IMG/VR virus record: IMGVR_UViG_3300032307_000723
Span: 1-64,000 of that record
Strand: one strand, 5' to 3'
DNA length: 64,000 nt
Source of the DNA: a virus
Under the pieces are notes generated by a model, which saw nothing but the letters and a program-made list of their open reading frames with translations, searched no databases and was not told the origin of the DNA. Positions within the stretch are counted from its first letter, which is position 1. Every line of letters starts with the position of its first letter. The position numbers were made by a program, and so were the translations under genes. Shown one piece after another: positions 2,628-47,519 of the stretch.

Positions 2628-5600
2628 ATGGCTTGTAAAGATTATGACATAATAATAAGTGCTCTTGATATTGCGAATGCAACAGGTAATAGTAATCCTA
2701 CTCAGAATGGTACTGTGTTTGTTGATTACACTGATTGTTATGGTACACCGTTTCAACTATCATATAGTAGTGCAGGTACTTATAGTAGTGCAGTCTGTGG
2801 TGACGATTCAATTTCTTTTGTCTTTTCTTATTTTAATAATAATGTAGGAACTATTACGACTAATAGTTATGAGAATCAACAAAGTGCATGTGCAACAGTT
2901 TGTTATAATGCGGATGCGACAGTTAGTTCAACTGACTTAGCTGACGCTACCGGAAATACTGATGTTAGTAAGAATAACAAAGTTTTCTTCCAATACGTTG
3001 ATTGTGATGGTAATGGTCAAACAAGTGATGGGTATGGAACCGCAGGATTTTTCCCTGATGCAGAATGTATTTCAGGTATAACAAGTACATTTGCGATATA
3101 TTATAAAAACGATGTCATTAATTACACAATTTTAAGTAGTTTAATTAATAATTATACTATTTGTGTTCCGTTAACTCCGACCCCAACTCCAACACCAACA
3201 AATACATCTACACCAACACAAACTCCAACAAATACTCAGACTTCTACACCAACACAAACACCAACAAATACAGAAACACCAACTCAAACACCAACAAACA
3301 CAGGAACTCCAACACAAACGCCAACAAATACTCAAACTTCTACTCCAACTCAAACACCAACAAGTACTCAAACTTCAACACCAACTCCGACACCTACCTC
3401 AACAGGTGGTTATATTGTTGAATTTCAGAGTTGTGTTAATTCATTAAATAAATTTAGATTTATTGGATTACCATCAACTTTTGGTAATGGAGACACTTAT
3501 TTGATTAGTGGTGGTACTGAATTTGAGGGATGTGCGACTGTTGTACCATATACAGGTTCAGGCCCAATATATAACGGTTCAGGAGTTAGTTTTACACTTG
3601 TAGGTTTTGGTTGTGGAGACCCTATATGTCCAAGAACAAATAATATACCGGCAATTTTAACAAGTTGTGGGGATGGTTCTATTCTTTATGCAAATGTTGA
3701 AGAAGGAACTGCTTTTACTGGTGCGGTTTATTTTTATAATGGTCAATGTTATTCATTCGTTGAATTTTCAGGACCGGGTGGACCTGATTTAGGTGAGCCG
3801 GATTATAAAGATTGTTCTTCCTGTACTCCAACCCAAACGCCAACACCAACACCTCAACCAACACCAACAAACACGCCAACACCATCGACAACGCCACAAA
3901 ATTGTCCAAACAATGTTTATTGTTTTAGAACAACATTATCTTCGTTATCAGGTTATAGTGGAAATTATACATCATCAGGTTCATACAATTCAAGACCGTA
4001 TTACTCAGGTGATTCTATTAATACTTCATTTATTTATTATACAGGTAACTATTGGTGTTTAAGTAATAGTTTAGGAGGTTCTTGTTTATTACAAGGTGCA
4101 ACACCTTGTTACTCAAGTTGTCCGGATATATCGGCTAATGATTTTACTGCGGGTATTTGTCCGTCACCAACACCATTACCAATTGATTGTACTACCTTTG
4201 ATTTTAGTGCTTATTTCGATTGTAATTTTGAACCAACTCCAACACCAATTCCAATAATTGATTGTGAAAATGTTAATTTTGAAGTGACTTCTGTTGCGGT
4301 TACACCAACACCATTACCACCGGTTGATAATTGTATTGGTACTGCAGTATCATTTAGTTTAAGTGGATATACTCCTGTTGGTCCGACAGTTACTTCTACT
4401 CCAACTCAAATGCCAACTCCTGATATTCCTTCGGGAGGTCAAGTAACATTTAATATGTTAGAGGAAACATTTACGTGTGTTTCAGTTAAAGTATTAAAAC
4501 TTTGTTCAGATGATAGTGTGATATATGTTAATGATGGTTTAGTTTATAATAATTTACCATTAACAACAGGAACTACATTCTTAGCATTGATAAATAATGT
4601 TCAAACATGTGTGACATATGTTAGGGATGAGTTCAACTTATCATCAAATGCTAATGTTAATTCTGTACTTAATGTTTATGGTAATTGTGCTTCTTGTGGT
4701 ATTTTACCAACTCCAACACCAACATCAACATCAACTCAAACGCCAACACCAACTCAAACACAGACTCAAACACCTACACCAACAAATACGTCAACACCAA
4801 CACAAACTCCTACTCAAACGTCGACTCAAACTCCCACACCAACTACAACATCAACATTAGGTACAACACCACCACCTACACCGACAAATACAGGTACTCC
4901 TACTCCAACACCTACTCAAACACCTACTCAAAACCCTTGTAATTGTATTACTTTTGTTGATTATGTGGGCAGTAGGCCTTATCAATACACTGATTGTTCG
5001 GGGGTAATTGTAACTGGTACTACACAACCTCTTGGTAATTTCCAACCCCCAAATGTGTTTAGTGTTTGTGGTAGTAACCCTTTAACTAATAATCCAAAAT
5101 TCACTTTCACTATTAATGGTTTATGTAGTAATCGTGTGAACTGTGATGTAATTCCAACTCAAACACCGACTCCAACATCAACACCGACACCAACACCGAC
5201 ATCAAAATATGTTTATGTGTTTGAAAGTTGTGTTGCTATTAACCCTAAAATTAGTTCACAATTAACACAAATAATACAAGATTCTCCTTTATCGTTTGTA
5301 ATTAATGTTGACGAGGTTTTCAAAGATAAAGATGAAATTTGTTGGAGATATGTTGGTAGATTTGGCACTAATTATATTCCACCAAGTAATGTAAATATAA
5401 TAACTTATAGTGGTGATTATTTTGCGGGTGTTTCACCAACAATTTACCCTAACTGTAGTACTTGTATTGAAAGACCATTATGTGATATACCTGAAAATTT
5501 AGAGAAGTGGACACTAGTTGAAAATGTGTATGGAGGACAATTCCCGAGTATTTATTGGAACTTTAATTTGGGTGAATTATCTGACGCTTGTAATGCGTGG

Positions 5601-5882
5601 AATTGGTATTATGGAAATTATAATCAAATTACCGAAATTAATTATGATATTCGTTATATAGGTGTTGAAAGTTTAGCTATTGGAAATATTGCTTATGGAT
5701 ATAGTCCGGGAGAAGATAAATTTTATTGTCCTCCATTCCCTGCCGGGAATTATTGGTTATTAAATTATAGTACTAATTCAAATATAATTCAAAATAATCC
5801 TTCGTCTCCTGATATGACAATAATTCAGATAGATAGTCAAGGTATAATAACAAATATAACAACTTGTTATTTTCAACCATAA
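2628..5882 (+). CDS. Large Pro/Thr-linker, Cys-rich virion/tail adhesin
   Basis: 1084 aa; several PT tracts separating Cys-rich modules; N-terminus paralogous to 7715; TATTTATA at 2605. Confidence 0.7.
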   Translation: MACKDYDIIISALDIANATGNSNPTQNGTVFVDYTDCYGTPFQLSYSSAGTYSSAVCGDDSISFVFSYFNNNVGTITTNSYENQQSACATVCYNADATVSSTDLADATGNTDVSKNNKVFFQYVDCDGNGQTSDGYGTAGFFPDAECISGITSTFAIYYKNDVINYTILSSLINNYTICVPLTPTPTPTPTNTSTPTQTPTNTQTSTPTQTPTNTETPTQTPTNTGTPTQTPTNTQTSTPTQTPTSTQTSTPTPTPTSTGGYIVEFQSCVNSLNKFRFIGLPSTFGNGDTYLISGGTEFEGCATVVPYTGSGPIYNGSGVSFTLVGFGCGDPICPRTNNIPAILTSCGDGSILYANVEEGTAFTGAVYFYNGQCYSFVEFSGPGGPDLGEPDYKDCSSCTPTQTPTPTPQPTPTNTPTPSTTPQNCPNNVYCFRTTLSSLSGYSGNYTSSGSYNSRPYYSGDSINTSFIYYTGNYWCLSNSLGGSCLLQGATPCYSSCPDISANDFTAGICPSPTPLPIDCTTFDFSAYFDCNFEPTPTPIPIIDCENVNFEVTSVAVTPTPLPPVDNCIGTAVSFSLSGYTPVGPTVTSTPTQMPTPDIPSGGQVTFNMLEETFTCVSVKVLKLCSDDSVIYVNDGLVYNNLPLTTGTTFLALINNVQTCVTYVRDEFNLSSNANVNSVLNVYGNCASCGILPTPTPTSTSTQTPTPTQTQTQTPTPTNTSTPTQTPTQTSTQTPTPTTTSTLGTTPPPTPTNTGTPTPTPTQTPTQNPCNCITFVDYVGSRPYQYTDCSGVIVTGTTQPLGNFQPPNVFSVCGSNPLTNNPKFTFTINGLCSNRVNCDVIPTQTPTPTSTPTPTPTSKYVYVFESCVAINPKISSQLTQIIQDSPLSFVINVDEVFKDKDEICWRYVGRFGTNYIPPSNVNIITYSGDYFAGVSPTIYPNCSTCIERPLCDIPENLEKWTLVENVYGGQFPSIYWNFNLGELSDACNAWNWYYGNYNQITEINYDIRYIGVESLAIGNIAYGYSPGEDKFYCPPFPAGNYWLLNYSTNSNIIQNNPSSPDMTIIQIDSQGIITNITTCYFQP

Positions 5883-5893
5883 TAATATATAAC

Positions 5894-6112
5894 ATGGCAG
5901 TACAAGTAACAATTAATAGTATAACAGGACAATCACCATTTGATATTTATATATGTCAATCAAATGGTACGGGTTGTTTTTATATATCAACAATAACGTC
6001 AACACCATATGTGTTTGACATACCTGAACCATACAATAGTTCAACATCTTATCAATTAAAAGTAATTGATTCAAATAATTGTACAATAACCGGAGTAGAA
6101 AACGTAGAATGA
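5894..6112 (+). CDS. Small beta-rich virion protein, paralogous to the N-terminus of the next gene
   Basis: MAVQVTINSITGQSPFDIYIC resembles MSQEVTILSVTANTPVDVYYC; ATGA overlap with next gene. Confidence 0.65.
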   Translation: MAVQVTINSITGQSPFDIYICQSNGTGCFYISTITSTPYVFDIPEPYNSSTSYQLKVIDSNNCTITGVENVE

Positions 6113-7677
6113 GTCAAGAAGTAACCATATTATCAGTAACAGCGAACACACCTGTAGATGTCTACTATTGTGATTCGTTTAGTGCGAATTGTGTTTTCGT
6201 GGATTCTGTTACAGTTTTTCCATTCACATTTGATGTTCCACCACCATACGATGGGACAAATATTGTTGTTAAAATAATTGATAATGAATTTTGTGTTGAT
6301 GGTCAAGTGATTTCAATTTCACCAACTCCAACAAGTAGTGTGACACCAACCGTGACACCGACACAAACTCAAACGCCAACTAATAGTCCAACACAAACTC
6401 CAACACAAACACAAACTCCAACAAATACGCAAACTCCAACAAATACATCGACTAATACTCCAACACCAACATCCACATCTGCTAATGCGATTCATTATGT
6501 TGGTCAAAATTCGTTCACAACTTCAGGTAATGTATGTAATCAAATAATGACTATTTTACCATATTACACTTACTTAAGTGCGTCAAATAATGTACCTGTA
6601 ATTGGTACAACAATTTATCAAACAAATGTTAACGGAGTTCTTTACAATCCATTAGATGGTGGTTTAAAATATTACAAAATGACTTTTGGTGGGTATTATT
6701 ATGTGGTTCAAATTAACGGAAACGGGGAGATAACATCTTTTGAAATATGTTCAGGATTGGTTACACCAACACCGACAAGTACAACAACTCCAACAAATAC
6801 CCCAACAAATACTTCAACACCTACAAATACGCCTACAAATACCACAACTAATACATTAACACCGACAAATACACCGACAAATACATTAACACCGACAAAT
6901 ACACCGACAAATACATTAACACCGACAAATACACCGACAAATACATTAACACCGACAACTACACCAACAAATACATTAACACCAACAAATACAGGTACTC
7001 CGACACCAACTCCAACATCCGCAGCAAGTGGAGTTTCAGAATATGGTTATTTATATGGGTCATATTTTACACATAATAGTGATAATTTTGTACCAAATGG
7101 GTGGAGAATTCCGGAATATCATACAAGTGGAGGTGTTCAAAGTGATGTATTTATTTTAAGAAATTATGTTGTTTCTAATAGTGGCCCATTGAAAAGTACT
7201 CGTACTTCTCCTACAATTTCACCAAGATGGTTAAGTCCAAACACAGGTGCTTCTGATTTATATGGGTTTGGTGCATTGCCGGCCGGAGTTCGATTCCCTA
7301 ATGGTAATTTTATTCGTAGAGAACAAGAATTTGATATGTTATTTGGAGGTTATGATTCTACAGGTAATGTTCCTGTTCAGGGTTACTTAAGTCTCCGATA
7401 TGATAATACTGTTATTAGTTGGTCGCCATCTTCATTTTTCCAAAATTATGGTGCCTCGGTTAGATTTATTAAAGAGGACCCAAATGATTGGTCGCCTGGT
7501 GACACTGTAACTGATTATGAAGGAAATGTTTATAATACGGTTAAAATTGGTACACAAGTATGGACTGTTGAAAATTGGAAATCAAGAAAATATTTTGATG
7601 GTACGGATATTCCATTGATTCAAAATAGTTCTATATGGAGTTCAACAAATACACCTGCAATGTGTTACTATGTTTAA
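6109..7677 (+). CDS. PT-repeat virion protein with permuted FISUMP (Fib_succ_major)-like domain
   Basis: YGYLY..GWRIP..GFGALPAG..ASVRFIKE followed by DYEGNVYNTVKIGTQVWTVEN; start chosen at ATGA overlap. Confidence 0.7.
   Translation: MSQEVTILSVTANTPVDVYYCDSFSANCVFVDSVTVFPFTFDVPPPYDGTNIVVKIIDNEFCVDGQVISISPTPTSSVTPTVTPTQTQTPTNSPTQTPTQTQTPTNTQTPTNTSTNTPTPTSTSANAIHYVGQNSFTTSGNVCNQIMTILPYYTYLSASNNVPVIGTTIYQTNVNGVLYNPLDGGLKYYKMTFGGYYYVVQINGNGEITSFEICSGLVTPTPTSTTTPTNTPTNTSTPTNTPTNTTTNTLTPTNTPTNTLTPTNTPTNTLTPTNTPTNTLTPTTTPTNTLTPTNTGTPTPTPTSAASGVSEYGYLYGSYFTHNSDNFVPNGWRIPEYHTSGGVQSDVFILRNYVVSNSGPLKSTRTSPTISPRWLSPNTGASDLYGFGALPAGVRFPNGNFIRREQEFDMLFGGYDSTGNVPVQGYLSLRYDNTVISWSPSSFFQNYGASVRFIKEDPNDWSPGDTVTDYEGNVYNTVKIGTQVWTVENWKSRKYFDGTDIPLIQNSSIWSSTNTPAMCYYV
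6851..6992 (+). repeat. 30-bp coding tandem repeat (TLTPTNTPTN)
   Basis: ATACATTAACACCGACAAATACACCGACAA three times perfect, then one 2-mismatch copy and a partial copy. Confidence 0.9.
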
Positions 7678-7714
7678 TAAAACAAATAAAAATATAATTA
7701 TAGAATAAAGAATA

Positions 7715-10700
7715 ATGGCTTGTAAGTATTATGACATAACGATAAGTGAAATAGATATTGCGGATGCAACGGGTAATACTATTTCCCCTAACTTAAATGG
7801 TAAAGTTTTTGTTAAATATACTGATTGTGATGGTATAGAACAAGAGGTGGGATATGATACTCCTGGTACTTATGTTGACGAGTTTTGTGCGAATAATGAT
7901 GAACTCGTTTTAATAGGGTTTTATTCTAATAATCAACCTTTCTCCCTAACTATAAATTCAACATATAGTGAACAAGGTGATTGTTCAGTTACTTGTTTTG
8001 GGTATTTGTATAATTGGTATGCAGCAACAGATGTCAGAAATATTTCTGCAGCTGGGTGGGAAGTTCCTACAATTTCAGATTATCAAATTTTAGCGAATTA
8101 TTTAGGAGCTGCTGGTAATTATGTTACAAATGTGGTTGGTGGTAAATTAAAAGAGACCGGATTAACTTATTGGAATAGTCCAAATGTAGGAGCAACTAAT
8201 GAAGTTGGGTTTAACGCTATTGGAAGTGGGGTAAGAACGACTGGATTTGGACTATTAGGTACGAGTGGATATTTATGGACAAGAGATAACCCATTTCCAA
8301 GTGGGGGATATCTAGCTATGTTATCCAATTCAAATCAAAACTTTGTCTGTGCAACTGGTAATTCGTATCTTAAAAAAGATGGATATGCTTTAAGATTAAA
8401 AAAAATAACTACAACATTAGTTAATGGACAAACAGGTACTTATGTTGGGAATGATGGAAAAACATATGACACGATTTGTATTGGAACACAAGAATGGGTA
8501 TCTCAAAATTTAACAGAAACTAAATATAGAGATTTAAGTGATATATCGAATGTTACCGTTCAAGCAACTTGGAGTGGGTTAACAACAGGAGCTTATTGTA
8601 TTTACAACAACGACCCTGTAAATGTTAGTGGTTGCCCTCCACTACCACCAACACCGACAACACTTTGTTTTGAATATATTGGTTTAAATTACCCTAACCC
8701 GTCAGAAGTATTTTTATGTGATATTAGCTCGGCTCCATCACTTTATAATGGTAAAAATTATTGGATATTATCTGATTGTGCTCAACCAGAACAATGTAGT
8801 TATTTCGATATAGGGTTTGTTTGGTGGAATGATTTAACATCTTCGTGGTATAATAGTACAACATTAGGTGGTACAGGTATATATGAAGCTTTAAGTGAAC
8901 TACAAAATCCCGGAGACTACCCTATACAAATACCAGGGGTTTATGAATGGACATTCCTACCGGCATCTTTTTGTACTTGTTGCCCATCTATTATTAATTC
9001 AAATTTAGGTTCGTGTTCTGAACCAACTCCAACACCTACTCCAACACCAACAAATACTCAAACACCAACAAATACTCAAACACCGACTAAGACACCAACC
9101 CAAACACCAACTCAAACTCAAACACCAACGAATACTGTTACATCTAGTCAAACCCCATCAACAACTCCAATTAGTTGTGGATTAGGGTTAATTAAAACAA
9201 ATAGTGAATATTATTACACTGATTGTTGTGGTAATTTTATCTCAGGTTTTAACAATACCGGTGATGGATTACAAGTAAGTTTTAATTATAACTTGCCAAG
9301 AGGAGGTGTGGGTAAATTAAATGTGCCTGCGACAATTTCTTGTCCCTCACCAACTCCAACCCCGACTCAAACTGTTACACCAACAAATACTGTTACACCA
9401 ACGGTAACCCCAACAAATACTACAACACCCACACCATCAATTACACCATCGATTACTCCGTCAAACAGCCCGGTTGCGAGAATTCAAAATAGTTGTGATG
9501 TTATTACTTTATTTGATATGGGTATTTCATGTAATGTGATACAAAATCCTTCTAGTCCTACTTCATTAGATGGTATTATTTCGGTAAATGTAACAGGAGG
9601 AACCGCTCCTTATTCATATTATTGGAACGGAAATGCGGGACCTCAAACGTTATTCGGAGTTACTCAAGGTGACTATGAGATTTTTGTTACAGATTTTTCT
9701 TGGCCTGATGGTGGTCCTGATTTTACTGCTTCAACAATATGTTCATTAGTTGGACCAACACCAACACAAACTCCAACAATGACACCAACACCAACTAGTA
9801 CACGACCAATTCAATGTGTTGAGTTGTGTATGATTATCACCGATTCACTAAGGGGTACTACTATATTAGGACCTATTCAATTTGAATGTTACGGATATAA
9901 AAATGGTCAATTTACTTGGTTTGGTGAATGGAATGGTAAACCATTATATATAATATGGAATCCAACAAACAATAAATGGGAAGTATATTCAGATTCTCAA
10001 GGTAACCAATTATTCAATTTAGGTAGTACAAGTTTATCAAATTACGGAACTATTATTGCAAGTACTAGTACGAGTGCGATTCCTGTATCAGCATGGAATC
10101 TTTATGGGGAAGAAAGTAATGGTAATGTGACAGTAACTACAGGTTCTTGTCCAGAATACTCACCACTATCATTAAATTTATTAGCAACAAATAATAGTTG
10201 TTTAAATATGGTAAATTGTGATGGTTCAATTACTGCCAATGCTCAAGGTGGGTTAGCACCATATTATTATTCGATAAATGGTGGAATTACAACTCAAGAA
10301 AGTCCTTCATTTAATAATTTATGTCCAAATGATTATGAGGTTACGGTTTATGATTCTGCAGGGGGTCAACAATCAAGTGTTGCCAATGTTGGATATAATG
10401 GTAGTCCGGTTACTTACCAACTTTCAATAACTAATTCTGGTTCACCCGTTTCATCTACCGTACCTAATGTTTCAAATAATTTAACTCAAAGTTATAAAAT
10501 CGTGTCAGTACCTCCAATACCTGTTGGGTTAACGATATCATTTAATTTGTCAATATCAAATACTAAGATATATCAAGGACCTGGTAATGGAACAATTGAC
10601 AATACATTAATTATTACTAAAAATGGTACGGAACAAACACCAACATTTGTTTCAAATGTACCTGTTATTGGTAATAGACCAAATTGTTCACCGAACATTG

Positions 10701-11776
10701 AAACAGGGATTACTCAAACGAATAGTGTTATATTAACAATGTCATATAATGATGAAATTGAAATAACTGAAAATTCTAATTTAATCCTAACAAATCCGAA
10801 CGGGGGAGACAATAGATGTACAACAACATTAACCCAAACTATTTCGGCTAACATAACACAAACTGAGTCTGTTGGTAATGAGTGTTCTACCGCAGTTGGA
10901 GGTTCAAGAACTTTATTGGAGAATACAATAACTTATTTACCTACAACTTTACAAACATGGAATCCTACGGATATTGTTTGTAATTTCCAAAGTGTAAATT
11001 TTACCTCAATAAAGGGTAGTGGTGAAGCTATGCCAACTACAGTGTATGTTCCGGTAGACGGAACTAGAATGTACTTACCTATGTATGGTACTAAAAAAAT
11101 TAACCAATATAGTTTATCTGTTCCCCATAATATAAATTCAACAATTACTTTTATAAATTCTGGACCTATTTTACCATACTATTTTAATGGAATGCAGATG
11201 AGTACTGACGGAACTAAAGTTTTTGTATTTGGTAATGCGTACGAGGCGGTAATTAGAGAATACACATTATCGGTTCCGTGGGATATTACCACTATGTCAA
11301 CGAGTGTTAATGCAAGTTTAACTTATCCAATACCAGGCTCAAGTACTGCACTTGTAGGAAGAACTCCATCTTTTAATCGAGACGGAACTAAAATTTATGC
11401 AACTTACTATATAAATTTTGGTGGTCCTAATCCTAATATCGCAGCAGATATAGTTTGGGAATTATCGACACCATACTCATTATCAAGTGCTGGTACACCT
11501 ATAACTAGTAACATTACATCCTCTATTTCGACAATAACAGGTAACATGTATTTTGAAAACGGGACTGATAAGTATTTTACTGCTGTAGGTAATGGATTAC
11601 CTCAAGTTGCAGTATTTGAGAACGGAATAACTAATAATGATTTATATGGGGTGAACAATGAATGTCTTTTTGTTAGTCCTGATTGTCAAGATAATATTCA
11701 CATCTATGACTCTTTAAGAAGTTCTGGCTCACCATTTGTATGGACTTTAAGACAAAGTAAAACAGGGTTACTGTAA
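7715..11776 (+). CDS. Multidomain virion adhesin: permuted FISUMP, PT linkers, SprB-like repeats, C-terminal beta-propeller
   Basis: GYLYNWYA..GGKLKETG..WNSPN.GATNE.GF; DGIISVNVTGGTAPYSY and DGSITANAQGGLAPYYY; MSTDGTKVFV..EYTLSVPWDITT. Confidence 0.7.
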   Translation: MACKYYDITISEIDIADATGNTISPNLNGKVFVKYTDCDGIEQEVGYDTPGTYVDEFCANNDELVLIGFYSNNQPFSLTINSTYSEQGDCSVTCFGYLYNWYAATDVRNISAAGWEVPTISDYQILANYLGAAGNYVTNVVGGKLKETGLTYWNSPNVGATNEVGFNAIGSGVRTTGFGLLGTSGYLWTRDNPFPSGGYLAMLSNSNQNFVCATGNSYLKKDGYALRLKKITTTLVNGQTGTYVGNDGKTYDTICIGTQEWVSQNLTETKYRDLSDISNVTVQATWSGLTTGAYCIYNNDPVNVSGCPPLPPTPTTLCFEYIGLNYPNPSEVFLCDISSAPSLYNGKNYWILSDCAQPEQCSYFDIGFVWWNDLTSSWYNSTTLGGTGIYEALSELQNPGDYPIQIPGVYEWTFLPASFCTCCPSIINSNLGSCSEPTPTPTPTPTNTQTPTNTQTPTKTPTQTPTQTQTPTNTVTSSQTPSTTPISCGLGLIKTNSEYYYTDCCGNFISGFNNTGDGLQVSFNYNLPRGGVGKLNVPATISCPSPTPTPTQTVTPTNTVTPTVTPTNTTTPTPSITPSITPSNSPVARIQNSCDVITLFDMGISCNVIQNPSSPTSLDGIISVNVTGGTAPYSYYWNGNAGPQTLFGVTQGDYEIFVTDFSWPDGGPDFTASTICSLVGPTPTQTPTMTPTPTSTRPIQCVELCMIITDSLRGTTILGPIQFECYGYKNGQFTWFGEWNGKPLYIIWNPTNNKWEVYSDSQGNQLFNLGSTSLSNYGTIIASTSTSAIPVSAWNLYGEESNGNVTVTTGSCPEYSPLSLNLLATNNSCLNMVNCDGSITANAQGGLAPYYYSINGGITTQESPSFNNLCPNDYEVTVYDSAGGQQSSVANVGYNGSPVTYQLSITNSGSPVSSTVPNVSNNLTQSYKIVSVPPIPVGLTISFNLSISNTKIYQGPGNGTIDNTLIITKNGTEQTPTFVSNVPVIGNRPNCSPNIETGITQTNSVILTMSYNDEIEITENSNLILTNPNGGDNRCTTTLTQTISANITQTESVGNECSTAVGGSRTLLENTITYLPTTLQTWNPTDIVCNFQSVNFTSIKGSGEAMPTTVYVPVDGTRMYLPMYGTKKINQYSLSVPHNINSTITFINSGPILPYYFNGMQMSTDGTKVFVFGNAYEAVIREYTLSVPWDITTMSTSVNASLTYPIPGSSTALVGRTPSFNRDGTKIYATYYINFGGPNPNIAADIVWELSTPYSLSSAGTPITSNITSSISTITGNMYFENGTDKYFTAVGNGLPQVAVFENGITNNDLYGVNNECLFVSPDCQDNIHIYDSLRSSGSPFVWTLRQSKTGLL

Positions 11777-11810
11777 TAAAAAAAAAATAAAGAAAAACTA
11801 TTTATAACCA

Positions 11811-14045
11811 ATGGCTTATATAATTAAAAATACTTCGGGACTAATTAACACAAGATTAACTGATGTGGGTAGAAGATACTTATCTCAGGGAAATTTCAAT
11901 ATTGCCTATTTTCAAATAGGGGATAGTGAGGTTAGTTATACTGCGGTTCCGAATTACAATCAGACTAATAATAATATTTTGATGCCGGCATTCAATGCTC
12001 AAAATGATACAGGTTCGCCTCAGAATAATAAACAAAATATTAAATATCCGTATTTTGTTCAGGGTAGTGCAGGTAATACATATGGTATTCCATATATGGA
12101 TAGTGATTTTCAGTCGGTTTATAATTCTGCTGGTGTAAAAGGGTTTTTTATGACAGGGGGAACTCAAGGAAATTGGGATGTTCAAACAAGTTCTGCATAT
12201 ACTATCACATCAAACTATCAAGTTGATATGCAAACTTTGACGGGTCAAACACAAATTGATATAAATTTAGACCCAATAATTTGTTCTCCAACAACAGGTA
12301 CACCGGCAATAAATGATTTTGTTACGATTATCTATGATGGTAATGGTGGTTGTGGTAATGTTGGAACCTATTCGATATTAACATATAAGATACAGGATTT
12401 AAATCCATCGACAGGGACTACAGGAACAACTACTTGGACATTAACATTAGACAGGTCAGTTCCTGATTATACCGGTAAAGTATTAGGTGGTGAAATGGGT
12501 AGAGTTTTAATTTATCCTTCAGGAATGACAGAACTTTATGACACAATAACACCGGCACCTTATTGGGATATAGATACAATTAACTTTGAATCTCCTTGTG
12601 ATATATCAAAACGAGAAAACACTGTGGTTTGGAATATGAATATTCCATGGACTGAAAATCCTGCAGGTTTGATGTTTGGGTATGAGGGATATTCGAACTA
12701 TGGTTCTGTAGGTTATATTGGAACTAAAGAATATTTGGGTTATAACGAGCCAAGTGGTCAAACTGACACCAGTAAAGTTTATTATTACAATTCATACGAT
12801 GAGGAGATTGTTGTTAAACCACAAGACCAAAAAGTAATATCAATTATCCATTACACCAATCAAGATATTGATAATGTGTATGGTGAGAAATTTGCGACAG
12901 TTCCATATGACCCTCAAACTCCAACTGATAATACTGGTTTAGCAAGACATTTTAAACTTACAATGCCAACATTGATGTGGCATAAATCATCAGGAACAAG
13001 TATTGGTGAAACATTTTGGATTGACCCTCCTGGTTATGATGATAAGAAATTATGTACTCCATACTATATTAAGTCAAGAAAAAATATTGATATGAATGAC
13101 CCGGGTATTAGATATTTCCATTTATGGGATACAAATCCGGATAGCAATGGTAATTTAAATAGAATTGGTAAAGTATTCCCCGACCAAGAAATAATTATTA
13201 TTGATGACGAGGAAGTTGTTGCATCTATGTCGTATAAATCAAATAGAAATTGGACATTACCTGCACCGAGATTATCTTTAATTTCTCCAAATATATGTGA
13301 ACCAAATAGTTCAACATCTACAGGTATTTTTACAACACCAACACAAAGCATGTGGATTACATATCGATTTGATTCAACAGGTTTTACTGATTCATTACAT
13401 TGTAACTATTATTCATTTATAAGTGCTAGTTCAGCGGCAACACAAACTAATAGTGATAATATTGCGGTTAAGTTTGGCCCTGAATTTAAATTTTTGAATC
13501 AACCTTTAAATACATATACAAGTGCTGATTTAAGTGGTTATTCTGCAAACTCTATGAAATTATTAGTTCAAATTGTTGAGGGAACTAATCGACCTATTTC
13601 AACGGCTTGGAAAGAAATTGATGTGACTTCTGAGATTAGTGGTTCATCTATAAATGGTTATATTACTATGAGTGGTATTACGGGAACTACATTCCAAATT
13701 AATCAACAAACGTATGATAATGCAGTACCATATAACTTGGGAACTTATATTGATTTACCACAGAATGGTCAATCAGAATATTTGAATTTTGGTGACGAGT
13801 ATTATTTTTATGGTAATTTGGAGACGGACATATCCGCTACCATTTATGAAATGAAATATCTTGTGAATTTAGGTCGAAACCAATTTACAAATACATCAAA
13901 TCCAACATGGATGTCAGGAACTACCTCATATGTTACCGAAATTGGCCTTTACAACTCACAAAAAGACCTTATGGTTGTATCTAAGCTACAATCACCTGAA
14001 TTACGACAGGGTATTCAACAATTTGTGGTTAAATTAGATTTCTAA
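11811..14045 (+). CDS. Putative baseplate/tail structural protein
   Basis: 744 aa; C-terminal VTEIGLYN..LMVVSKL..FVVKLDF typical of tail-fibre/baseplate attachment domains; TATTTATA at 11799. Confidence 0.55.
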   Translation: MAYIIKNTSGLINTRLTDVGRRYLSQGNFNIAYFQIGDSEVSYTAVPNYNQTNNNILMPAFNAQNDTGSPQNNKQNIKYPYFVQGSAGNTYGIPYMDSDFQSVYNSAGVKGFFMTGGTQGNWDVQTSSAYTITSNYQVDMQTLTGQTQIDINLDPIICSPTTGTPAINDFVTIIYDGNGGCGNVGTYSILTYKIQDLNPSTGTTGTTTWTLTLDRSVPDYTGKVLGGEMGRVLIYPSGMTELYDTITPAPYWDIDTINFESPCDISKRENTVVWNMNIPWTENPAGLMFGYEGYSNYGSVGYIGTKEYLGYNEPSGQTDTSKVYYYNSYDEEIVVKPQDQKVISIIHYTNQDIDNVYGEKFATVPYDPQTPTDNTGLARHFKLTMPTLMWHKSSGTSIGETFWIDPPGYDDKKLCTPYYIKSRKNIDMNDPGIRYFHLWDTNPDSNGNLNRIGKVFPDQEIIIIDDEEVVASMSYKSNRNWTLPAPRLSLISPNICEPNSSTSTGIFTTPTQSMWITYRFDSTGFTDSLHCNYYSFISASSAATQTNSDNIAVKFGPEFKFLNQPLNTYTSADLSGYSANSMKLLVQIVEGTNRPISTAWKEIDVTSEISGSSINGYITMSGITGTTFQINQQTYDNAVPYNLGTYIDLPQNGQSEYLNFGDEYYFYGNLETDISATIYEMKYLVNLGRNQFTNTSNPTWMSGTTSYVTEIGLYNSQKDLMVVSKLQSPELRQGIQQFVVKLDF

Positions 14046-39317: not shown

Positions 39318-39649
39318 CAAAATCAAATTACATTGAGAAAATAGAAAAAGGGAATAATGTTTATTTTTCTATTATGGACTTACCTAATGCAACTCCGGAG
39401 TTTTTAAAATTTATTTCAGAGAAATTTGCATTGATTCATAGTATTGCTGAGATGGGGCAAGATTTAAAAATTACTTACAAAGAAAAAATTTACTTAACAA
39501 AACAAGAATTTTATTTATATTTACTAATAACCGATGATGATATCCAAGTAAGAGTTTATTACCAACAAAAACAATTAGACGAACTTAGACTTATTATTGG
39601 ACAACTTTTAAAACAATCAAATTTATGGAAATTACAACAGAAGAATTAA
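39314..39649 (+). CDS. Hypothetical protein
   Basis: 111 aa. Confidence 0.55.
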   Translation: MTKSNYIEKIEKGNNVYFSIMDLPNATPEFLKFISEKFALIHSIAEMGQDLKITYKEKIYLTKQEFYLYLLITDDDIQVRVYYQQKQLDELRLIIGQLLKQSNLWKLQQKN

Positions 39650-39945
39650 AACAAAAAATTGAAAATGGTGAGAAATTAGTAGTTGATTTCTGGGCCCCGT
39701 GGTGTGGACCATGTAAGATTATGAAACCTATCTTTGAGAAAGTGTCTCAAGAGTATAGAGATGATAACTCAGATGTTCAACTATACACATTAAATGTTGA
39801 AGAGAATAAAGAATTTGCTGCTGAGTTAGGGATTCGTGCTATTCCAACAGTTAAAACATTTGTGGGTGGGGAACAAAAATTCTCAAGTCCGGGTGTGTTA
39901 AGAGAGGATAGAATAAAAGAGTTGGCGACAGAATTATTAAATTAA
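39625..39945 (+). CDS. trxA: Thioredoxin
   Basis: VDFWAPWCGPCK..IRAIPT. Confidence 0.92.
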   Translation: MEITTEELKQKIENGEKLVVDFWAPWCGPCKIMKPIFEKVSQEYRDDNSDVQLYTLNVEENKEFAAELGIRAIPTVKTFVGGEQKFSSPGVLREDRIKELATELLN

Positions 39946-39946
39946 T

Positions 39947-40246
39947 ATGAAAGATTTAAATGTTATAGTTTACACAATGAAGGGATGTCCATTCTGTATG
40001 GACTTTAAAGAATTACTTGTTAAAGAGGGTATTGAGTTCTTCGATAGAGATATTGATGATTACAAAGATGAGTATGAAGTTTATACTCAGATAACTGAAA
40101 ATGATATGATACCATCATTGTTAATTATTGAAGGGGATGATGCCAAATACGAGTCATTCTTATATGCCCCTGAAAGAAACTATAACGAATTAACTGAGGC
40201 GGTTGATATCATTAACCAACACAGAAAAAAAGTTGGTATTATCTAA
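39947..40246 (+). CDS. Glutaredoxin-like protein
   Basis: YTMKGCPFC..MIP. Confidence 0.8.
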   Translation: MKDLNVIVYTMKGCPFCMDFKELLVKEGIEFFDRDIDDYKDEYEVYTQITENDMIPSLLIIEGDDAKYESFLYAPERNYNELTEAVDIINQHRKKVGII

Positions 40247-40998: not shown

Positions 40999-41123
40999 TG
41001 TAAATTATGATAAGTGTTTAATGTTTTGGAAATTATAGTAAAATTAAAAAATAAAACGAATAGTTATTAAATTGAAATAACCACATTCCTTCGTATTTAT
41101 AAGTTAAGTGAAACAAAGTTTTA

Positions 41124-43430
41124 ATGGCTAAAAATATATTAATAGTACCGAGTAATACAATTGCCCCTCAACCGGACAATATTCCTTATATTGATTTTGA
41201 GAACACTGGTTTAATCAAATTGAATGTTCGAGGTAATGGTGATATTGTATTTAGTAGCGCAACAGAAGATGAAGTACTTTTTATTAATGATAAGCAAGTA
41301 AAAACTGGAAATAATCTTAATGTAAAAGATTATTTTGCTGTTAACGGTACTCAAGTTATAAATGGTACAGGGAATTGGATTGGTCCGACAACTAATATTG
41401 CGGGTGCTCAAGGTCCTACGGGTGCGAAAGGGACTACAGGTGATGGAGGTGCAACGGGAAACACCGGTGCTCCGGGTGCTAATAGTGCGGTTTCAGGTGC
41501 TCCGGGTCCAACAGGCCCTACCGGTTCTCAAGGTCCAATAGGAAATAATGGAATTTCGGGTTCCACAGGTTCTATCGGTTCAACAGGACCAACAGGACCC
41601 AAAGGTTCTCAAGGAGCTACGGGTAATATAGGTTCACAAGGTCCAAAGGGGCCTCAAGGTTCTCAAGGACCAAAAGGGGCGACGGGACCAACCGGTAGTG
41701 CAGGGGCGACTGGTGATGCAGGACCTACAGGACCAAAAGGTTCTGTTGGAACAACAGGTGATGGAGGTGCTTCTACAGGATTTCCGGGATTTCCCGGACC
41801 ACAAGGTTCCCAAGGTTCTCAAGGAGTGCAAGGTTCTCAAGGGGCAACAGGAAATACAGGTGCTCAAGGACCTACAGGTGCTCAAGGTGCGACAGGTAAT
41901 ACAGGTGCCCAAGGAATTATTGGACCACAGGGTGCTCAAGGACTACAAGGTGCTCAAGGTGCGACAGGTAATACAGGTGCTCTTGGACCACAAGGAAACA
42001 CTGGTGCGACAGGATTTATAGGACCCACAGGTAATACAGGTGCTCAAGGACCTACGGGTGGTACAGGTGCTGCCGGCCCACAAGGAGCGACAGGAAATAC
42101 AGGAGCGGTAGGTCCAACAGGTAATACAGGATTTACAGGACCTACGGGTAATCCGGGGGCGACGGGACATACAGGTGCCCAAGGTCCACAAGGTCTACAA
42201 GGTGCTCAAGGGACTACAGGTCCTGTGGGTACTCAAGGAAGTAAAGGTCCACAAGGACCACAAGGAACTCAAGGTTCACAAGGTGCAACAGGATTTGTTG
42301 GACCTACCGGACCTACCGGACCCCAAGGATTACAAGGTTCTCAGGGAGCAACAGGAGAGAAAGGGCCAACTGGTGCCCAAGGTCCAAAAGGATTTACAGG
42401 GCCAACAGGACCCACCGGTAATACCGGAGCCCAAGGGCCTACAGGTCCTCAAGGTGCCCAAGGTCCTACAGGTGCAACAGGACCTGCCGGAGCTCAAGGG
42501 TCTCAAGGGGCGGTAGGAAATACGGGTGCTCAAGGAACTAAAGGTCCTCAAGGTCCTCAAGGTGCTCAAGGGGGTGCAGGTCCTCAAGGTGCACAAGGAG
42601 GTCAAGGTTCTCAAGGTTCTCAAGGTGGTCAAGGTTCTCAAGGTGCTCAAGGTGGTCAAGGTTCTCAAGGGGCTCCAAGACTTGGACCCCAAGGAAATCA
42701 AGGAGCTCCAGGTCCAGCAGGTGCTACAGGTGCTCAAGGTCCTCTAGGGGCTCAAGGAGCGACACAACCTACAGGCCCTCAAGGTGCCCAAGGTGCTCAA
42801 GGGTCTCAAGGGGCTTCAGGTACTGCGGCGGCTACTTGTACAACGGCTACATTAAATTATTGGAATGATTGTAGTGAACCGTGTGCCGGTTTTAAAGGGG
42901 GTACTATCACTTATTATCAACAAACAGGTTCAGGTGACCCTTATCCAACTTATAAATTTAGAACCCTTTCAAACTGTCAGAATAGTACGTGTGATTGGAA
43001 TACATATATACCAGTATCAGGGGCTAGAAACTTTTTTTGTACAATTTTAGACCCTGATTGTGGGTTTTTTGTTAACCAATATGATTGTTTTGCCTATTCG
43101 GATGTTAAACTTAAAGATGGTATAGAAACACTTGAAGGTGCGTTAGAAAACATTATGAAAATTAATGCGGTTGAATATGATTGGAATGAAAAATTAGGTC
43201 CTGACAGATATCAATTTTATTTAAATCAAGATAAATTACATACAATCGGTTTGATTGCTCAAAATGTTAGATTATATTATCCTGAAGCCGTAAGAATGAA
43301 TGATGATGGGTATTACTCTGTCGACTATCAAAAATTAAATTCAGTCTTAATTGAGGGTATCAAAGATTTACAATATGAGATAGATGAAATGGATAAAGAA
43401 CTAAACAAAATTGAATTAATACTTAGTTAA
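41124..43430 (+). CDS. Collagen-like tail fibre 1 with Cys-rich tip and peptidase S74 chaperone
   Basis: GXY tract 41403-42821; YSDVKLKD; GLIAQ; TATTTATA at 41094. Confidence 0.88.
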
Positions 43431-45496
43431 TGGCGAATATTATTATATACCCACAAGGTAATGTTGGAAATACCGACCCTAACATAATTTTTGATGATGG
43501 GTCATCTAAGTTGCAATTTAATGTTAAGAATGGTTTCTTATCTCTATCGTCATCAACAATTAGTGATGGTGTTAATATCGGTCCTCAAAATGTTGTGGTT
43601 TCAGGTACTTCAATTACAGGACCAAGTGCTTCATTAGTTGTAGGTGGGGTTCAAATGATTAATAGTTCAGCCGTATGGGTTGGACCTCCTGAACCATTAA
43701 TAGGTTTCCAAGGTGCTCAAGGTGCTCAGGGAGCTAAAGGTAATACAGGTGCTCAAGGTGCTCAAGGTGCTCAAGGTCCCGTAGGGGCTCAAGGTTTTCA
43801 AGGTTTTACAGGACCTACAGGGTTTGTCGGACCACAAGGACCTCAAGGAGCGCAAGGAGCTCAAGGGTTTCAAGGTTCCACCGGACCAACAGGTGATACC
43901 GGAGTTCAAGGTGCTCAGGGTTCTGCGGGATTTACAGGGCCAACAGGAATTCCGGGAGAGGTTGGACCAACAGGTGATGCTGGTCTTACAGGTGCCCAAG
44001 GTTCTCAAGGTTCTCAAGGACCTACAGGTAATACAGGTGCTCAAGGGGCTAAAGGTCCACAGGGTGCTCAAGGACCTCAAGGAGCACAGGGGCCAAAAGG
44101 ATTTGTTGGACCTACAGGACCTACAGGACCACAAGGTAGTCAAGGTGCACAAGGTGTGAATGCCGGTGCCACAGGTCCACAAGGGTCTCAAGGTCCACAA
44201 GGGTCTCAAGGACCTACAAGTGGTGTTCAAGGTTCCCAAGGAGGTCAAGGTGCTCAAGGTTCCCAAGGTGCTCAAGGTGCTCAAGGTGCTGTTCAAGGTG
44301 CCCAAGGTTCTCAAGGTGCCCAAGGTTCCCAAGGTGCTCAAGGAGCTAATAGTAGTGTCCAAGGTGCTCAAGGTTCCCAAGGTGCTCAAGGTTCTCAAGG
44401 GGGTCAAGGTGCACAAGGTGCGGTTCAAGGTGCTCAAGGTGCTCAAGGTGTTCAAGGTGCTCAAGGTTCCCAAGGTGCTCAAGGTGCAAATGCAGGTGCT
44501 ACAGGACCTCAAGGTGCCCAAGGAGGACCAGGTGCTCCGGGTGCTCCCGGTACAAATTCCGTAGTTTCAGGTGCTCCGGGTCCAACAGGTCCTACCGGTG
44601 CTCAAGGAGCTCAGGGTGCAACACAAGGTGCACCTGGATTTACAGGACCTACAGGTAGCCAAGGTTCTCAAGGGGCGGGTAGTATTATTATGGGGGCAAC
44701 CGGACCACAAGGTTCTCAAGGGGCAACAGGTAATACAGGTGCTCAAGGTGCAAACGCTGGTGCACCGGGAGTTCCAGGTCCAACCGGAGCACAAGGTGCC
44801 CAAGGACCCGCAACCGCTCCCGGACCACAAGGTTTTCAAGGAAATCAAGGTGCCCAAGGAAACGTAGGAGTCGGTGGTGCTCCGGGTCCATCAGGTACCG
44901 TAGGACCACAAGGTGCTCAAGGGCCTAAAGGACCACAAGGTGCTCAAGGTCCTAAAGGGCCACAAGGTGCTCAAGGTCCTAAAGGACCACAAGGTGCTCA
45001 AAGTGCTCCGGGAGCTTCGGGGGCACAAGGAGCAACAGGTCCTCAAGGAGTGCAAGGTTCTCAAGGGCCACAAGGTTCCCAAGGTGCTCAAGGAGAACTT
45101 AGACAAGGTTCTCAAGGTTCACAAGGAGGTCAAGGGGCTCAAGGTGCTCCATCCGATAAAAGATTAAAAGATAATATAACACCAATGGTAAATGTTTTAG
45201 AGAAAACAACCCAAATTAAAGGTGTTATATTTGAATGGGATAGAGAACATAAAAAAATTAAAGATAATAAATCAATTGTATTCCAAGAGGCTTTCTCAGG
45301 TGATTCAATTGGCTTTATTGCTCAAGATTTAGAAAAAGTGGTACCTGAAATGGTATTTACGGATGATGAAGGTTGGAAAAGTGTTAGTTATGGTCAAATG
45401 GTTAGTTTAGGTATTGGAGGGATTCAAGAACAAAAAAGAAGAGTTGACTCAATATATGAAAGAATAAATAAATTAAAACAAATTACAGGTGTCTGA
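43430..45496 (+). CDS. Collagen-like tail fibre 2 with S74 chaperone
   Basis: GXY tract 43703-45145; PSDKRLKD; GFIAQD. Confidence 0.88.
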
Positions 45497-47504
45497 GAAT
45501 ATTATAATAACCCCGGGTAGTGGTACAATTGATTTTAATAGTTCACTTGGAATAGATACTATTTTTATTATAGAATCTGGTTCGTTAAAATTCAAACGAA
45601 GTACTACCACAATTTTCACTATTGATAACACTTATCCTAACTTTAGAGTGAGTACTAATGATGGATTATATGTTATTAACACTTTTATTAATAATTATGG
45701 TTCTTTAATTAATTCTACAGGATGGTTAGGAAATAGACAGCCAACAGGTGCTCAAGGTTCACAAGGTGCGGTCGGTTCACAAGGTGCTCAAGGTTCACAA
45801 GGTGCCGGTGGGGCTCAAGGTAATATTGGTCCACAAGGACCACAAGGACCACAGGGGTCACAAGGTGCAACAGGTCCACAAGGTTCTCAAGGACCTAAAG
45901 GTTCTCAAGGAGCGCAAGGAGTTCAAGGTTCTCAAGGTGCTCAAGGAGACCAAGGACCACAAGGACCACAAGGGCCACAAGGATTTCAAGGTTCTCAAGG
46001 TGCAAAAGGTGCTCAAGGTCCACAAGGGTCTCAAGGTTCGACAGGACCTACCGGAGGTCAAGGACCACAAGGTTCTCAAGGTGCCCAAGGAGGACAAGGT
46101 GCTCAAGGATTAACACCTGGTTCCACGGGTCCACAGGGTCCTCAGGGGGATACAGGTGCTACGGGTCCAAAAGGTGATACCGGGCCAATAGGAGGACAAG
46201 GTTCTCAGGGTGCAACAGGTGCAACAGGTGCAACAGGCCCAGCAGGAGCGACAGGTGCTCAAGGGACAACAGGTCCTACAGGCCCAAAAGGTAATACAGG
46301 TCCAACAGGTCCAACGGGTGCTCAAGGTACTCAGGGTGCAACAGGACCTACCGGAGGTACAGGGCCTCAAGGTTCTCAAGGTGCTGCGGGAGCTCAAGGT
46401 CCGAAAGGTCCAAATGGTCCAACAGGTGCCCAAGGACCTACCGGAGGTCAAGGTTCTCAAGGTTCTAAAGGACCAACCGGACCAACCGGACCTATCGGAC
46501 CAACAGGAGGACAAGGTTCTCAAGGTTTTACAGGATTTGATGGGAATGGAGGTTCACAAGGTGCTCAAGGAGCTGTCGGTGCACAAGGATTCCAAGGTTT
46601 TACAGGTCCTCCGGGGTTCGTTGGGCCAACAGGAGGACAAGGTGCTCAAGGTTCTCAAGGGCCAACAGGTCCAAAAGGAGACCAAGGACCAACAGGTCCA
46701 CAAGGTTCTCAAGGTGCAACAGGACCACAAGGTTCTCAAGGGGCACAAGGTTCTCAAGGAGGACAGGGGTCACAAGGAGCAGCAGGAACGGTTCAAGGTG
46801 CTCAAGGTCTTCAAGGTCCTAAAGGACCAAGTGGTCCTGACGGGGCTGGAGGTTCACAAGGTGCTCAAGGAGATGTCGGTGCACAAGGATTCCAAGGGCC
46901 AACAGGTTTTCCTTCTGTGTCTCCAGGGTCCCCAGGTGCTGCGGGAACTGTACAAGGGGCTCAAGGTGCTGCGGGAACTGTTCAAGGGTCTCAAGGTAAT
47001 CCCGGAGGGGTTCAAGGTGCTCAAGGTGCTGGACCACAAGGTGCTCAAGGTTCTCAAGGTGCGGGTCCAAAAGGAGCTCAAGGAGCCTCAGGGGCACAAG
47101 GTTCTCAAGGAGCTAAAGGTCCATTAGGACCAACAGGTGCTCAAGGTGCTACAGGAGCACAAGGTGCTACTCCATCTGATAGTAGAATGAAAAAAAATAT
47201 TAGACCAATTGAAGATTCATTAGAAAAAGTTTTGAAAATGAGAGGGGTTTCATTTATTTGGAATAAAAATGAAATAACACCAAATTACGGGAAAGACATT
47301 GGATTTATAGCACAAGAAGTTGCCCACGTATTACCTGAATTAGTTTTTAAAAGTAGTAAAGAAAATTCTCACTTTCAGGTTAAATATAATGATGTAATCG
47401 CCCTTTGTTTGGAGGCGATTAAAGAACAATCAAGGTTGATTGATTTAAAAGAAGAAAGATTAGAAAGGTTAGAAAATAAAGCAAAAGAAAAGGGACTTGT
47501 TTAA
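45489..47504 (+). CDS. Collagen-like tail fibre 3 with S74 chaperone (GTG start)
   Basis: GXY tract 45747-47165; PSDSRMKK; GFIAQE. Confidence 0.88.
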
Positions 47505-47519
47505 GGTCCCTTTTTTTTT
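47488..47519. terminator. Bidirectional terminator
   Basis: AAAAGGGAC..GTCCCTTTTTTTTT between convergent genes. Confidence 0.75.

Follow-up and report, generated by a model that had tools for sequence, protein, structure and literature searches.

Three adjacent collagen-like genes of a giant freshwater phage as putative strands of one heterotrimeric fibre

The window analysed here is a 64,000-nucleotide (nt) stretch, the initial 64 kb of the 117.6-kb IMG/VR record IMGVR_UViG_3300032307_000723, which belongs to a giant freshwater phage with a bacterial host. The record is about 40% complete by estimate and has a G+C content of about 30%. Positions 41124 to 47504 of the window hold a cassette of three consecutive plus-strand genes, each encoding a collagen rod followed by a C-terminal S74 chaperone domain. 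With moderate confidence, and on the basis of sequence comparisons, these genes are read as encoding the A, B and C strands of a single heterotrimeric collagen fibre. Its length would be about 135 nm (157 Gly-X-Y units of 0.86 nm each), and it would carry one Cys-rich tip. The original prediction had proposed either such a heterotrimer or three separate fibres under a common length constraint. This proposal is supported, and its heterotrimer branch appears favoured by a unit count that is blind to inserts, by the S74 types, by the single tip and by charges that pair across chains in register, most clearly in one relative (L068).

The first gene (41124..43430, plus strand, 768 amino acids (aa), identified from its open reading frame and Pfam matches) comprises a type-A N-terminal domain, a rod, a Cys-rich tip and a type-a S74 domain. 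Its N-terminal domain (aa 1-93, 41124..41402) is predicted to be mostly beta, with a model confidence (predicted local distance difference test, pLDDT) of 76, and has W-I-G before the rod. The rod (41403..42821) spans 472 aa and 157 units with 4 interruptions. The aromatic-rich tip (42822..43097), 92 aa with 8 Cys, is modelled as beta-rich (pLDDT 67-84), and the S74 domain (43098..43427) has the motif SDVKLK and an acidic C-terminal helix, with a net charge of -5 over the last 35 aa. Gene 2 (43430..45496, plus strand, 688 aa) has a type-B N-terminal domain (43430-43702), a rod of 480 aa and 157 units with 13 interruptions, about one every 7 units (43703-45145), and a type-b S74 domain with the motif SDKRLK and a basic helix of +3 (45152-45493). 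Gene 3 (45489..47504, plus strand, 671 aa) starts with GTG and comprises a type-C N-terminal domain (45489-45746), a rod of 472 aa and 156 units with 8 interruptions (45747-47165) and a type-c S74 domain with the motif SDSRMK (47175-47501). As predicted, the genes overlap, genes 1 and 2 by 1 nt (TAATG) and genes 2 and 3 by 8 nt.

The Pfam Collagen family (PF01391) matched the three products with 207, 180 and 174 bits, respectively, and Peptidase_S74 (PF13884) with 42.8, 48.4 and 59.6 bits, all above the cut-off of 22, in agreement with the S74 ends and the SD.(K/R)(L/M)K motif of the original prediction. These are the three S74 matches of the whole record. At the domain start, the catalytic Lys lies five positions after the catalytic Ser, and Ser, Asp and Lys are invariant in the alignments. 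The N-terminal domains (86-93 aa) begin with (A/S)-x-N-I-(I/L)-I-x-P and finish with W-x-G. Runs of Gly-X-Y cover 89-96% of each rod; the rods are rich in Gln and Thr at Y and in Ala, Pro and Ser at X, nearly uncharged and without hydroxyproline. The proteins also have PHROG tail-fibre matches. In genes 2 and 3 the S74 serine stands 3-4 residues past the last Gly, and the collagen runs straight into the predicted cleavage site, as had been noted. In gene 1 alone, the last Gly and the S74 serine are separated by a domain, the tip, which had been put at about 85 aa. For a model of tip plus S74 (mean pLDDT 63), Foldseek gave no match at E<=0.001 and the best VIA hit had a Z of 3.9, at the helical end. 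The model of the N-terminal domain gave no clear fold match (best Z 4.8), with scattered weak rows for phage spikes and fibres. Both searches are uninformative on fold novelty.

The three paralogues appear to be old, because their N-terminal domains are 23-30% and their S74 domains 28-39% identical to one another, as against about 90% to their orthologues in the nearest relative. A seven-unit motif is common to units 8-14 of gene 2 (approximately 43727-43789) and units 91-97 of gene 3 (approximately 46020-46082), and represents a piece of rod that moved between these paralogues out of register.

The distances from first to last Gly that had been counted by hand, 1416, 1440 and 1416 nt (472, 480 and 472 codons), proved exact. 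Gene 2 is longer than genes 1 and 3 by roughly one residue for each interruption, and lengths were therefore counted in units, each Gly-to-Gly step d being scored as round(d/3) units. Counted in this way, the rods match more tightly still, with 157/157/156 units. The different interruption patterns reported earlier were found again, the interruptions lying mostly at different units. The interruption style is specific to each gene and recurs from lineage to lineage. The type-B chain has one extra residue per about 7 triplets in nearly all lineages; this spacing is the repeat of the 7/2 collagen helix, and the bulges would share one face.

Searches of metagenome and viral contigs with the N-terminal domains added many such trios, and 25 non-redundant ones were compared in total. 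The co-variation of lengths that the original prediction proposed to check was found: all three rods agree within 4 units in 19 of the 25 trios, mostly within 1-2, while rod length varies five-fold, from 70 to 368 units. When each clade is represented by a single trio, 14 of 18 stay inside the 4-unit margin, and the maximum in 20,000 permutations of chains among genomes was 3 (P<5e-5). Matched trios include L004 (153/153/152 units), L014 (154/154/153), L038 (70/71/70), L050 (141/141/140), L054 (97/98/97), L055 (167/168/167), L058 (160/160/159), L060 (143/142/141), L067 (342/341/342) and L068 (254/253/252). The lengths in the window clade are reliable, since no self-repeat there exceeds 36 nt. 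Where related trios differ by insertions or deletions, the three chains are affected at similar axial levels, as between L066 and L067 (near residues 670-790) and between L060 and L063 (near 65-80 and 260-310).

The extra residues found in one chain, 13-36 in number, leave the unit count unchanged. In L058, 19 one-residue insertions bring chain 2 to 499 aa, as against 480 and 477 aa in the unbroken chains 1 and 3, and the trio counts 160/160/159 units. Moreover, chains that are apparently 70-120 units overlong hold non-collagen inserts of 216-346 aa, present in a single chain only. Once these inserts are removed, the trios match: L064 (141/139/138), L059 (220/220/221), L066 (366/366/368), L073 (342/340/342) and L077 (354/355/354). 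The conserved quantity is therefore the unit count and not the number of residues, because bulges and inserts in single chains leave the count untouched. This would point to one mixed helix, since the pairing of strands within a single helix demands equal numbers of Gly-registered units despite bulges and inserts.

The S74 domains belong to three conserved types (a, b and c), and each complete trio has exactly one of every type. The N-terminal domains likewise fall into three types, with one of each in nearly every trio; a divergent N-terminus, MGRDIK, was classified ambiguously. This one-of-each rule holds under permuted linkage, the window having Aa, Bb and Cc and L059 having Ab, Ca and Bc. 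In all lineages the last 35 residues of S74 are net acidic or neutral in type a and net basic or neutral in type b. Tips occur only on chains with a type-a S74 domain, and never twice in a trio. The Cys-rich knob appears to be a removable module, as judged from a trio without any tip in L055 (7876-14258) and from type-A genes without a tip in L015 (100-2304) and L018 (1307-3577). It is also the most variable non-collagen part of gene 1, with 32% identity to L004 compared with 83-94% for the flanking domains, and such fast divergence fits a putative contact surface.

Charge patterns add to this picture most clearly in L068, where chain 1 is acidic (net charge -21) and chains 2 and 3 are basic (+27 and +24). 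The three have in common a 13-unit repeat that stays in phase over more than 100 units. Each of the 26 acidic X residues in chain 1 is preceded, two units earlier, by a Lys or Arg at Y of chain 2, and for 24 of them a Lys or Arg also stands at Y of chain 3, three units earlier. The number of K-G-D/E pairs within a chain is 0. After a one-unit shift of index, which the rod boundaries permit, these offsets appear to be the axial salt-bridge geometry of designed ABC heterotrimers. The interrupted chain of L068 has 35 breaks and stays in phase with the two unbroken chains, whose hydrophobic residues align with the breaks (p=0.002), which shows that unmatched interruptions are compatible with association in register. 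In the window, pairs of Lys/Arg at Y of unit u with Asp/Glu at X of unit u+1 of another chain number 5, with 1.21 expected (P=0.008), and this offset ranks at the top of 25. In L014 there are 5 such pairs with 0.38 expected, and three of the window's pairs are conserved there. In the Lys-rich clade, same-chain K-G-D/E is depleted 2.5-fold (36 vs 92).

The cassette, 6.4 kb in size, sits between two conserved minus-strand genes. It is present at the same locus in L004, L014 and L013 besides the window record (4 records in all) and absent from six related records (L005, L006-L009 and L010), which include a complete genome of 309,177 bp. In the six cassette-free records, roughly 100 bp separate the two flanking minus-strand genes, and no S74 domain was found anywhere. 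No partial cassette with one or two of the genes was found in any relative. The cassette thus appears to be an optional module that is gained or lost whole, because records hold at this locus either all three genes or none. Its presence does not track flanking-gene identity among 10 related records, a pattern that suggests repeated loss or exchange by recombination. The G+C content is 55% in the collagen parts only, the other cassette domains being genome-like with 28-37%. A recent foreign origin of the cassette was rejected, as the high G+C content is limited to the collagen parts. Among cultured phages no near-identical DNA was found, and in a tblastn search of the phage collection the S74 part alone matched.

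The following mechanism is proposed. Coupled translation would supply the three chains in nearly equal amounts, and S74 domains of types a (acidic), b (basic) and c would associate into one mixed trimer at the C-termini. This trimer would fix the choice and the register of the chains and nucleate the 157-unit helix, which would zip from C to N. The S74 domains would then cleave themselves off at the SDxxxK serine, as the C-propeptide of procollagen is removed. The mature fibre would be held on the virion by a mixed N-terminal anchor (A, B and C) and would display at its distal end the single disulfide-rich knob of chain 1, a putative receptor-binding element, with chains 2 and 3 finishing as bare collagen.

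Several observations weigh against a mixed helix. Six of the 25 trios (L017, L024, L026, L031, L036 and L057) differ by 15-42 units. For two of them the sequence points to assembly collapse or population polymorphism, because L024 and L026 are 94-100% identical to the matched L050 apart from the copy number of tandem repeats: L026 (141/141/126) is 99-100% identical to L050 bar one 41-aa repeat copy, and L024 differs from L050 by whole copies of 41-42 aa plus one 6-aa gap. L031 is mismatched, and it has short self-repeats and two concordant assemblies. An independent variation of the three lengths, as raw residue spans would have it (e.g. 299/431/366 or 634/423/487), was dropped because of the unit counting, the removal of inserts and the near-identity of L026 and L050. 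The interruptions also count on the negative side. They stand mostly at different levels in the three window chains, and 11 of the 13 interruptions of gene 2, about 22 residues apart, stand opposite unbroken stretches of genes 1 and 3. A single Gly register covers at most 42-51% of gene 2 against gene 1 or 3, and 69% for genes 1 and 3. When each chain is paired with itself, the register covers 96%, 89% and 96% of the length of genes 1, 2 and 3. Hydrophobic residues of chains 1 and 3 in the window clade do not track the breaks of gene 2; such tracking was significant in L068 only and not in nine further lineages.

The charge signal of the window is small as well (P=0.16 over 25 offsets), and in L004 no excess of cross-chain pairs was seen at the same offset. 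The window rods hold few charges, and overall charge complementarity was rejected for them, all three being slightly positive. Charge cannot be the main selector of chains in the window, because its rods are nearly uncharged. In gene 1 the S74 domain lies 92 aa from its rod, and a mixed S74 trimer would have to loop out the tip, which lies between the two. Finally, the solved S74 relatives that were found (6f45, 8jov and 7dc3) are described as single-protein fibres or factors, and neither an S74 heterotrimer nor a heterotrimeric collagen outside animals was described in the literature searched.

Alternatively, the genes could encode three separate homotrimeric fibres, each nucleated by a homotrimeric S74 of its own and kept at equal length by selection because they function together on the virion: AAA bearing three tips, BBB with a kink at about every seventh triplet, and a plain CCC. 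Such an arrangement is possible but rather unlikely. It agrees with the known role of S74 as a chaperone of single-protein trimers (Schulz et al. 2010), with a Gly register that is far better in self-pairing than the 42-69% of mixed pairs, with two same-chain K-G-D motifs in window gene 3 and with the mismatched trios. A constraint on reach, however, should not hold flexible fibres of 60-315 nm to one triplet (<1 nm), and it should follow physical length, yet the large inserts and the extra residues leave the count intact. It would also leave unexplained the constant retention of all three S74 types, the lack of any trio with two tips, the residue-exact complementarity of L068 and the same-chain depletion of K-G-D/E.

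Packing three homotrimeric helices side by side and in register, as a nine-chain bundle, would keep the known homotrimeric behaviour of S74. It would also account for the equal unit counts, for a cassette that is either whole or absent and for the acidic and basic repeats that run in phase in L068. We nevertheless consider it improbable. With the one-unit index shift, the Y-to-X offsets of two and three units in L068 have the geometry of salt bridges within a helix; the depletion of same-chain K-G-D/E would have no explanation, nor would the single tip per trio, as a bundle would have three; bulky inserts present thrice at one level would impede packing; and no such phage collagen bundle was found in the literature searched. 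It is very unlikely that the lengths are equal through recent triplication or gene conversion, with no functional coupling. The motif common to genes 2 and 3 indicates that some exchange between paralogues occurs, but it stands at different positions in the two rods and such conversion would not preserve length. Moreover, the paralogues are divergent, the interruption styles are gene-specific and the three rods have lengthened or shortened together over a five-fold range. The reading preferred here, to which we give better than even chances, is a natural ABC heterotrimeric collagen outside animals, in which three specialised self-cleaving S74 chaperones would act as a mixed trimer to select the strands and set their register. 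It would carry a single monomeric disulfide-rich tip, and individual chains would tolerate looped-out domains and periodic one-residue bulges.

To our knowledge, heterotrimeric collagens are considered to have arisen in animals only, and those of microbes are taken to be homotrimers. In animal heterotrimeric collagens and C1q, three chains are encoded by separate and often tandem genes, and a C-terminal domain selects the chains; in procollagen this C-propeptide is removed. The cassette resembles these systems in its three distinct chains of equal helix length, in a C-terminal domain that lies at the predicted nucleation site and would be removed afterwards and, in relative L068, in cross-chain charge pairs in register. 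It differs in that its C-terminal domain is unrelated, being a chaperone of the Ser-Lys self-cleaving kind, and in that it lacks hydroxyproline and is encoded by a phage. Furthermore, only one of its chains has a head, and one chain has periodic one-residue insertions that are missing from the others.

With S74 phage fibres (PF13884; K1F endosialidase, the S16 long tail fibre 6f45 and the MyRF ICA 7dc3), the cassette proteins have in common the S-D-x-x-x-K motif and a domain position at the C-terminal end of a known or, here, predicted trimeric fibre, and self-cleavage after folding is expected by analogy. Unlike in those fibres, the chaperone follows a collagen rod rather than a beta-helix, and it comes as three co-occurring paralogous types, of which one is acidic and another basic. 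A mixed trimer is its probable working form, a mode that is undescribed so far. The Gly-X-Y rods without hydroxyproline are like those of Scl2, prophage EPclA and collagen-like tail fibres (PMC8968730, PMC11923368). Bacterial and phage collagen-like proteins have been reported as homotrimers (PMC8968730). K-G-D/E within a chain reportedly stabilises such proteins, K-G-D is reported to be over-represented in collagens of all domains of life and of viruses, and the collagen helix zips from C to N (PMC11923368). The cassette differs from these proteins in its three different chains at one unit count and in the same-chain K-G-D/E pairs, which are absent in L068 and depleted in others. Charge-driven ABC collagen heterotrimers have been designed (Gauba and Hartgerink 2007, Fallas et al. 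2009, as cited in PMC11923368). L068 is like them in having one acidic and two basic chains, with Lys/Arg at Y and Asp/Glu at X at a fixed offset, and unlike them in being natural, longer than 250 units and periodic over 13 units.

If the heterotrimer reading holds, the cassette would provide a compact, self-removing and gene-encoded means of selecting and registering three chains, which collagen engineers now build by hand, and a viral counterpart of the procollagen C-propeptide. It would also be the first use of a mixed-chain S74 chaperone and a natural test of what a triple helix can accommodate by way of bulges and inserted domains in a single strand. To phage biologists, the cassette would represent a widespread and optional fibre module of aquatic phages, with a length tunable between about 60 and 315 nm and a fast-varying tip.

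The boundaries of the cassette are clean, with a conserved spacer upstream and a terminator-like hairpin downstream. The AT-rich upstream intergenic region (40999..41123, plus strand) was compared, in a visual alignment, with the spacers of L005 and L006, which measure 95-100 bp; about 64 nt at its start are conserved in cassette-free relatives, and no consensus sigma-70 promoter was called on its plus strand. The hairpin (47492..47519, plus strand; GGGAC ... GTCCC with a 9-nt loop and a T-run) lies over the stop codon of gene 3. It was read directly from the sequence and is missing from the list of the scan tool, and a comparable hairpin stands at the same spot in relatives without the cassette.

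Some further features of the trios of relatives were noted. Non-collagen inserts of closely similar sizes (13/17, 103, 30 and 24/27 aa) break the rods of chain 1 of L031 (1289-4063) and chain 3 of L042 (6535-9114). L059 and L047 have inserts of 168 and 70 aa in common, and L066, L072 and L077 have inserts of 47, 108, 17 and 174 aa in common. In L070 (4676-10001), three open frames with 644, 517 and 197 aa of rod stand in place of one tipped middle gene, and the other two genes are intact; the split reflects either gene decay or an error of sequencing.

Matches to phage families are scarce among the genes of the record. Directly upstream of the cassette (39625-40246), two small genes with CxxC motifs are read, from these motifs alone, as thioredoxin-like and glutaredoxin-like. 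At the beginning of the window (1-2277), a frame that is open at its 5' end has at its end a weak match to an intein splicing domain (22 bits, below the cut-off). The region 2628-14045 carries giant genes of 1084, 532, 1353 and 744 aa, which are candidates for the primary adhesins. The 532- and 1353-aa proteins match Fib_succ_major and the 1353-aa protein also matches the SprB repeat, and together these matches hint at a Bacteroidota-like host.

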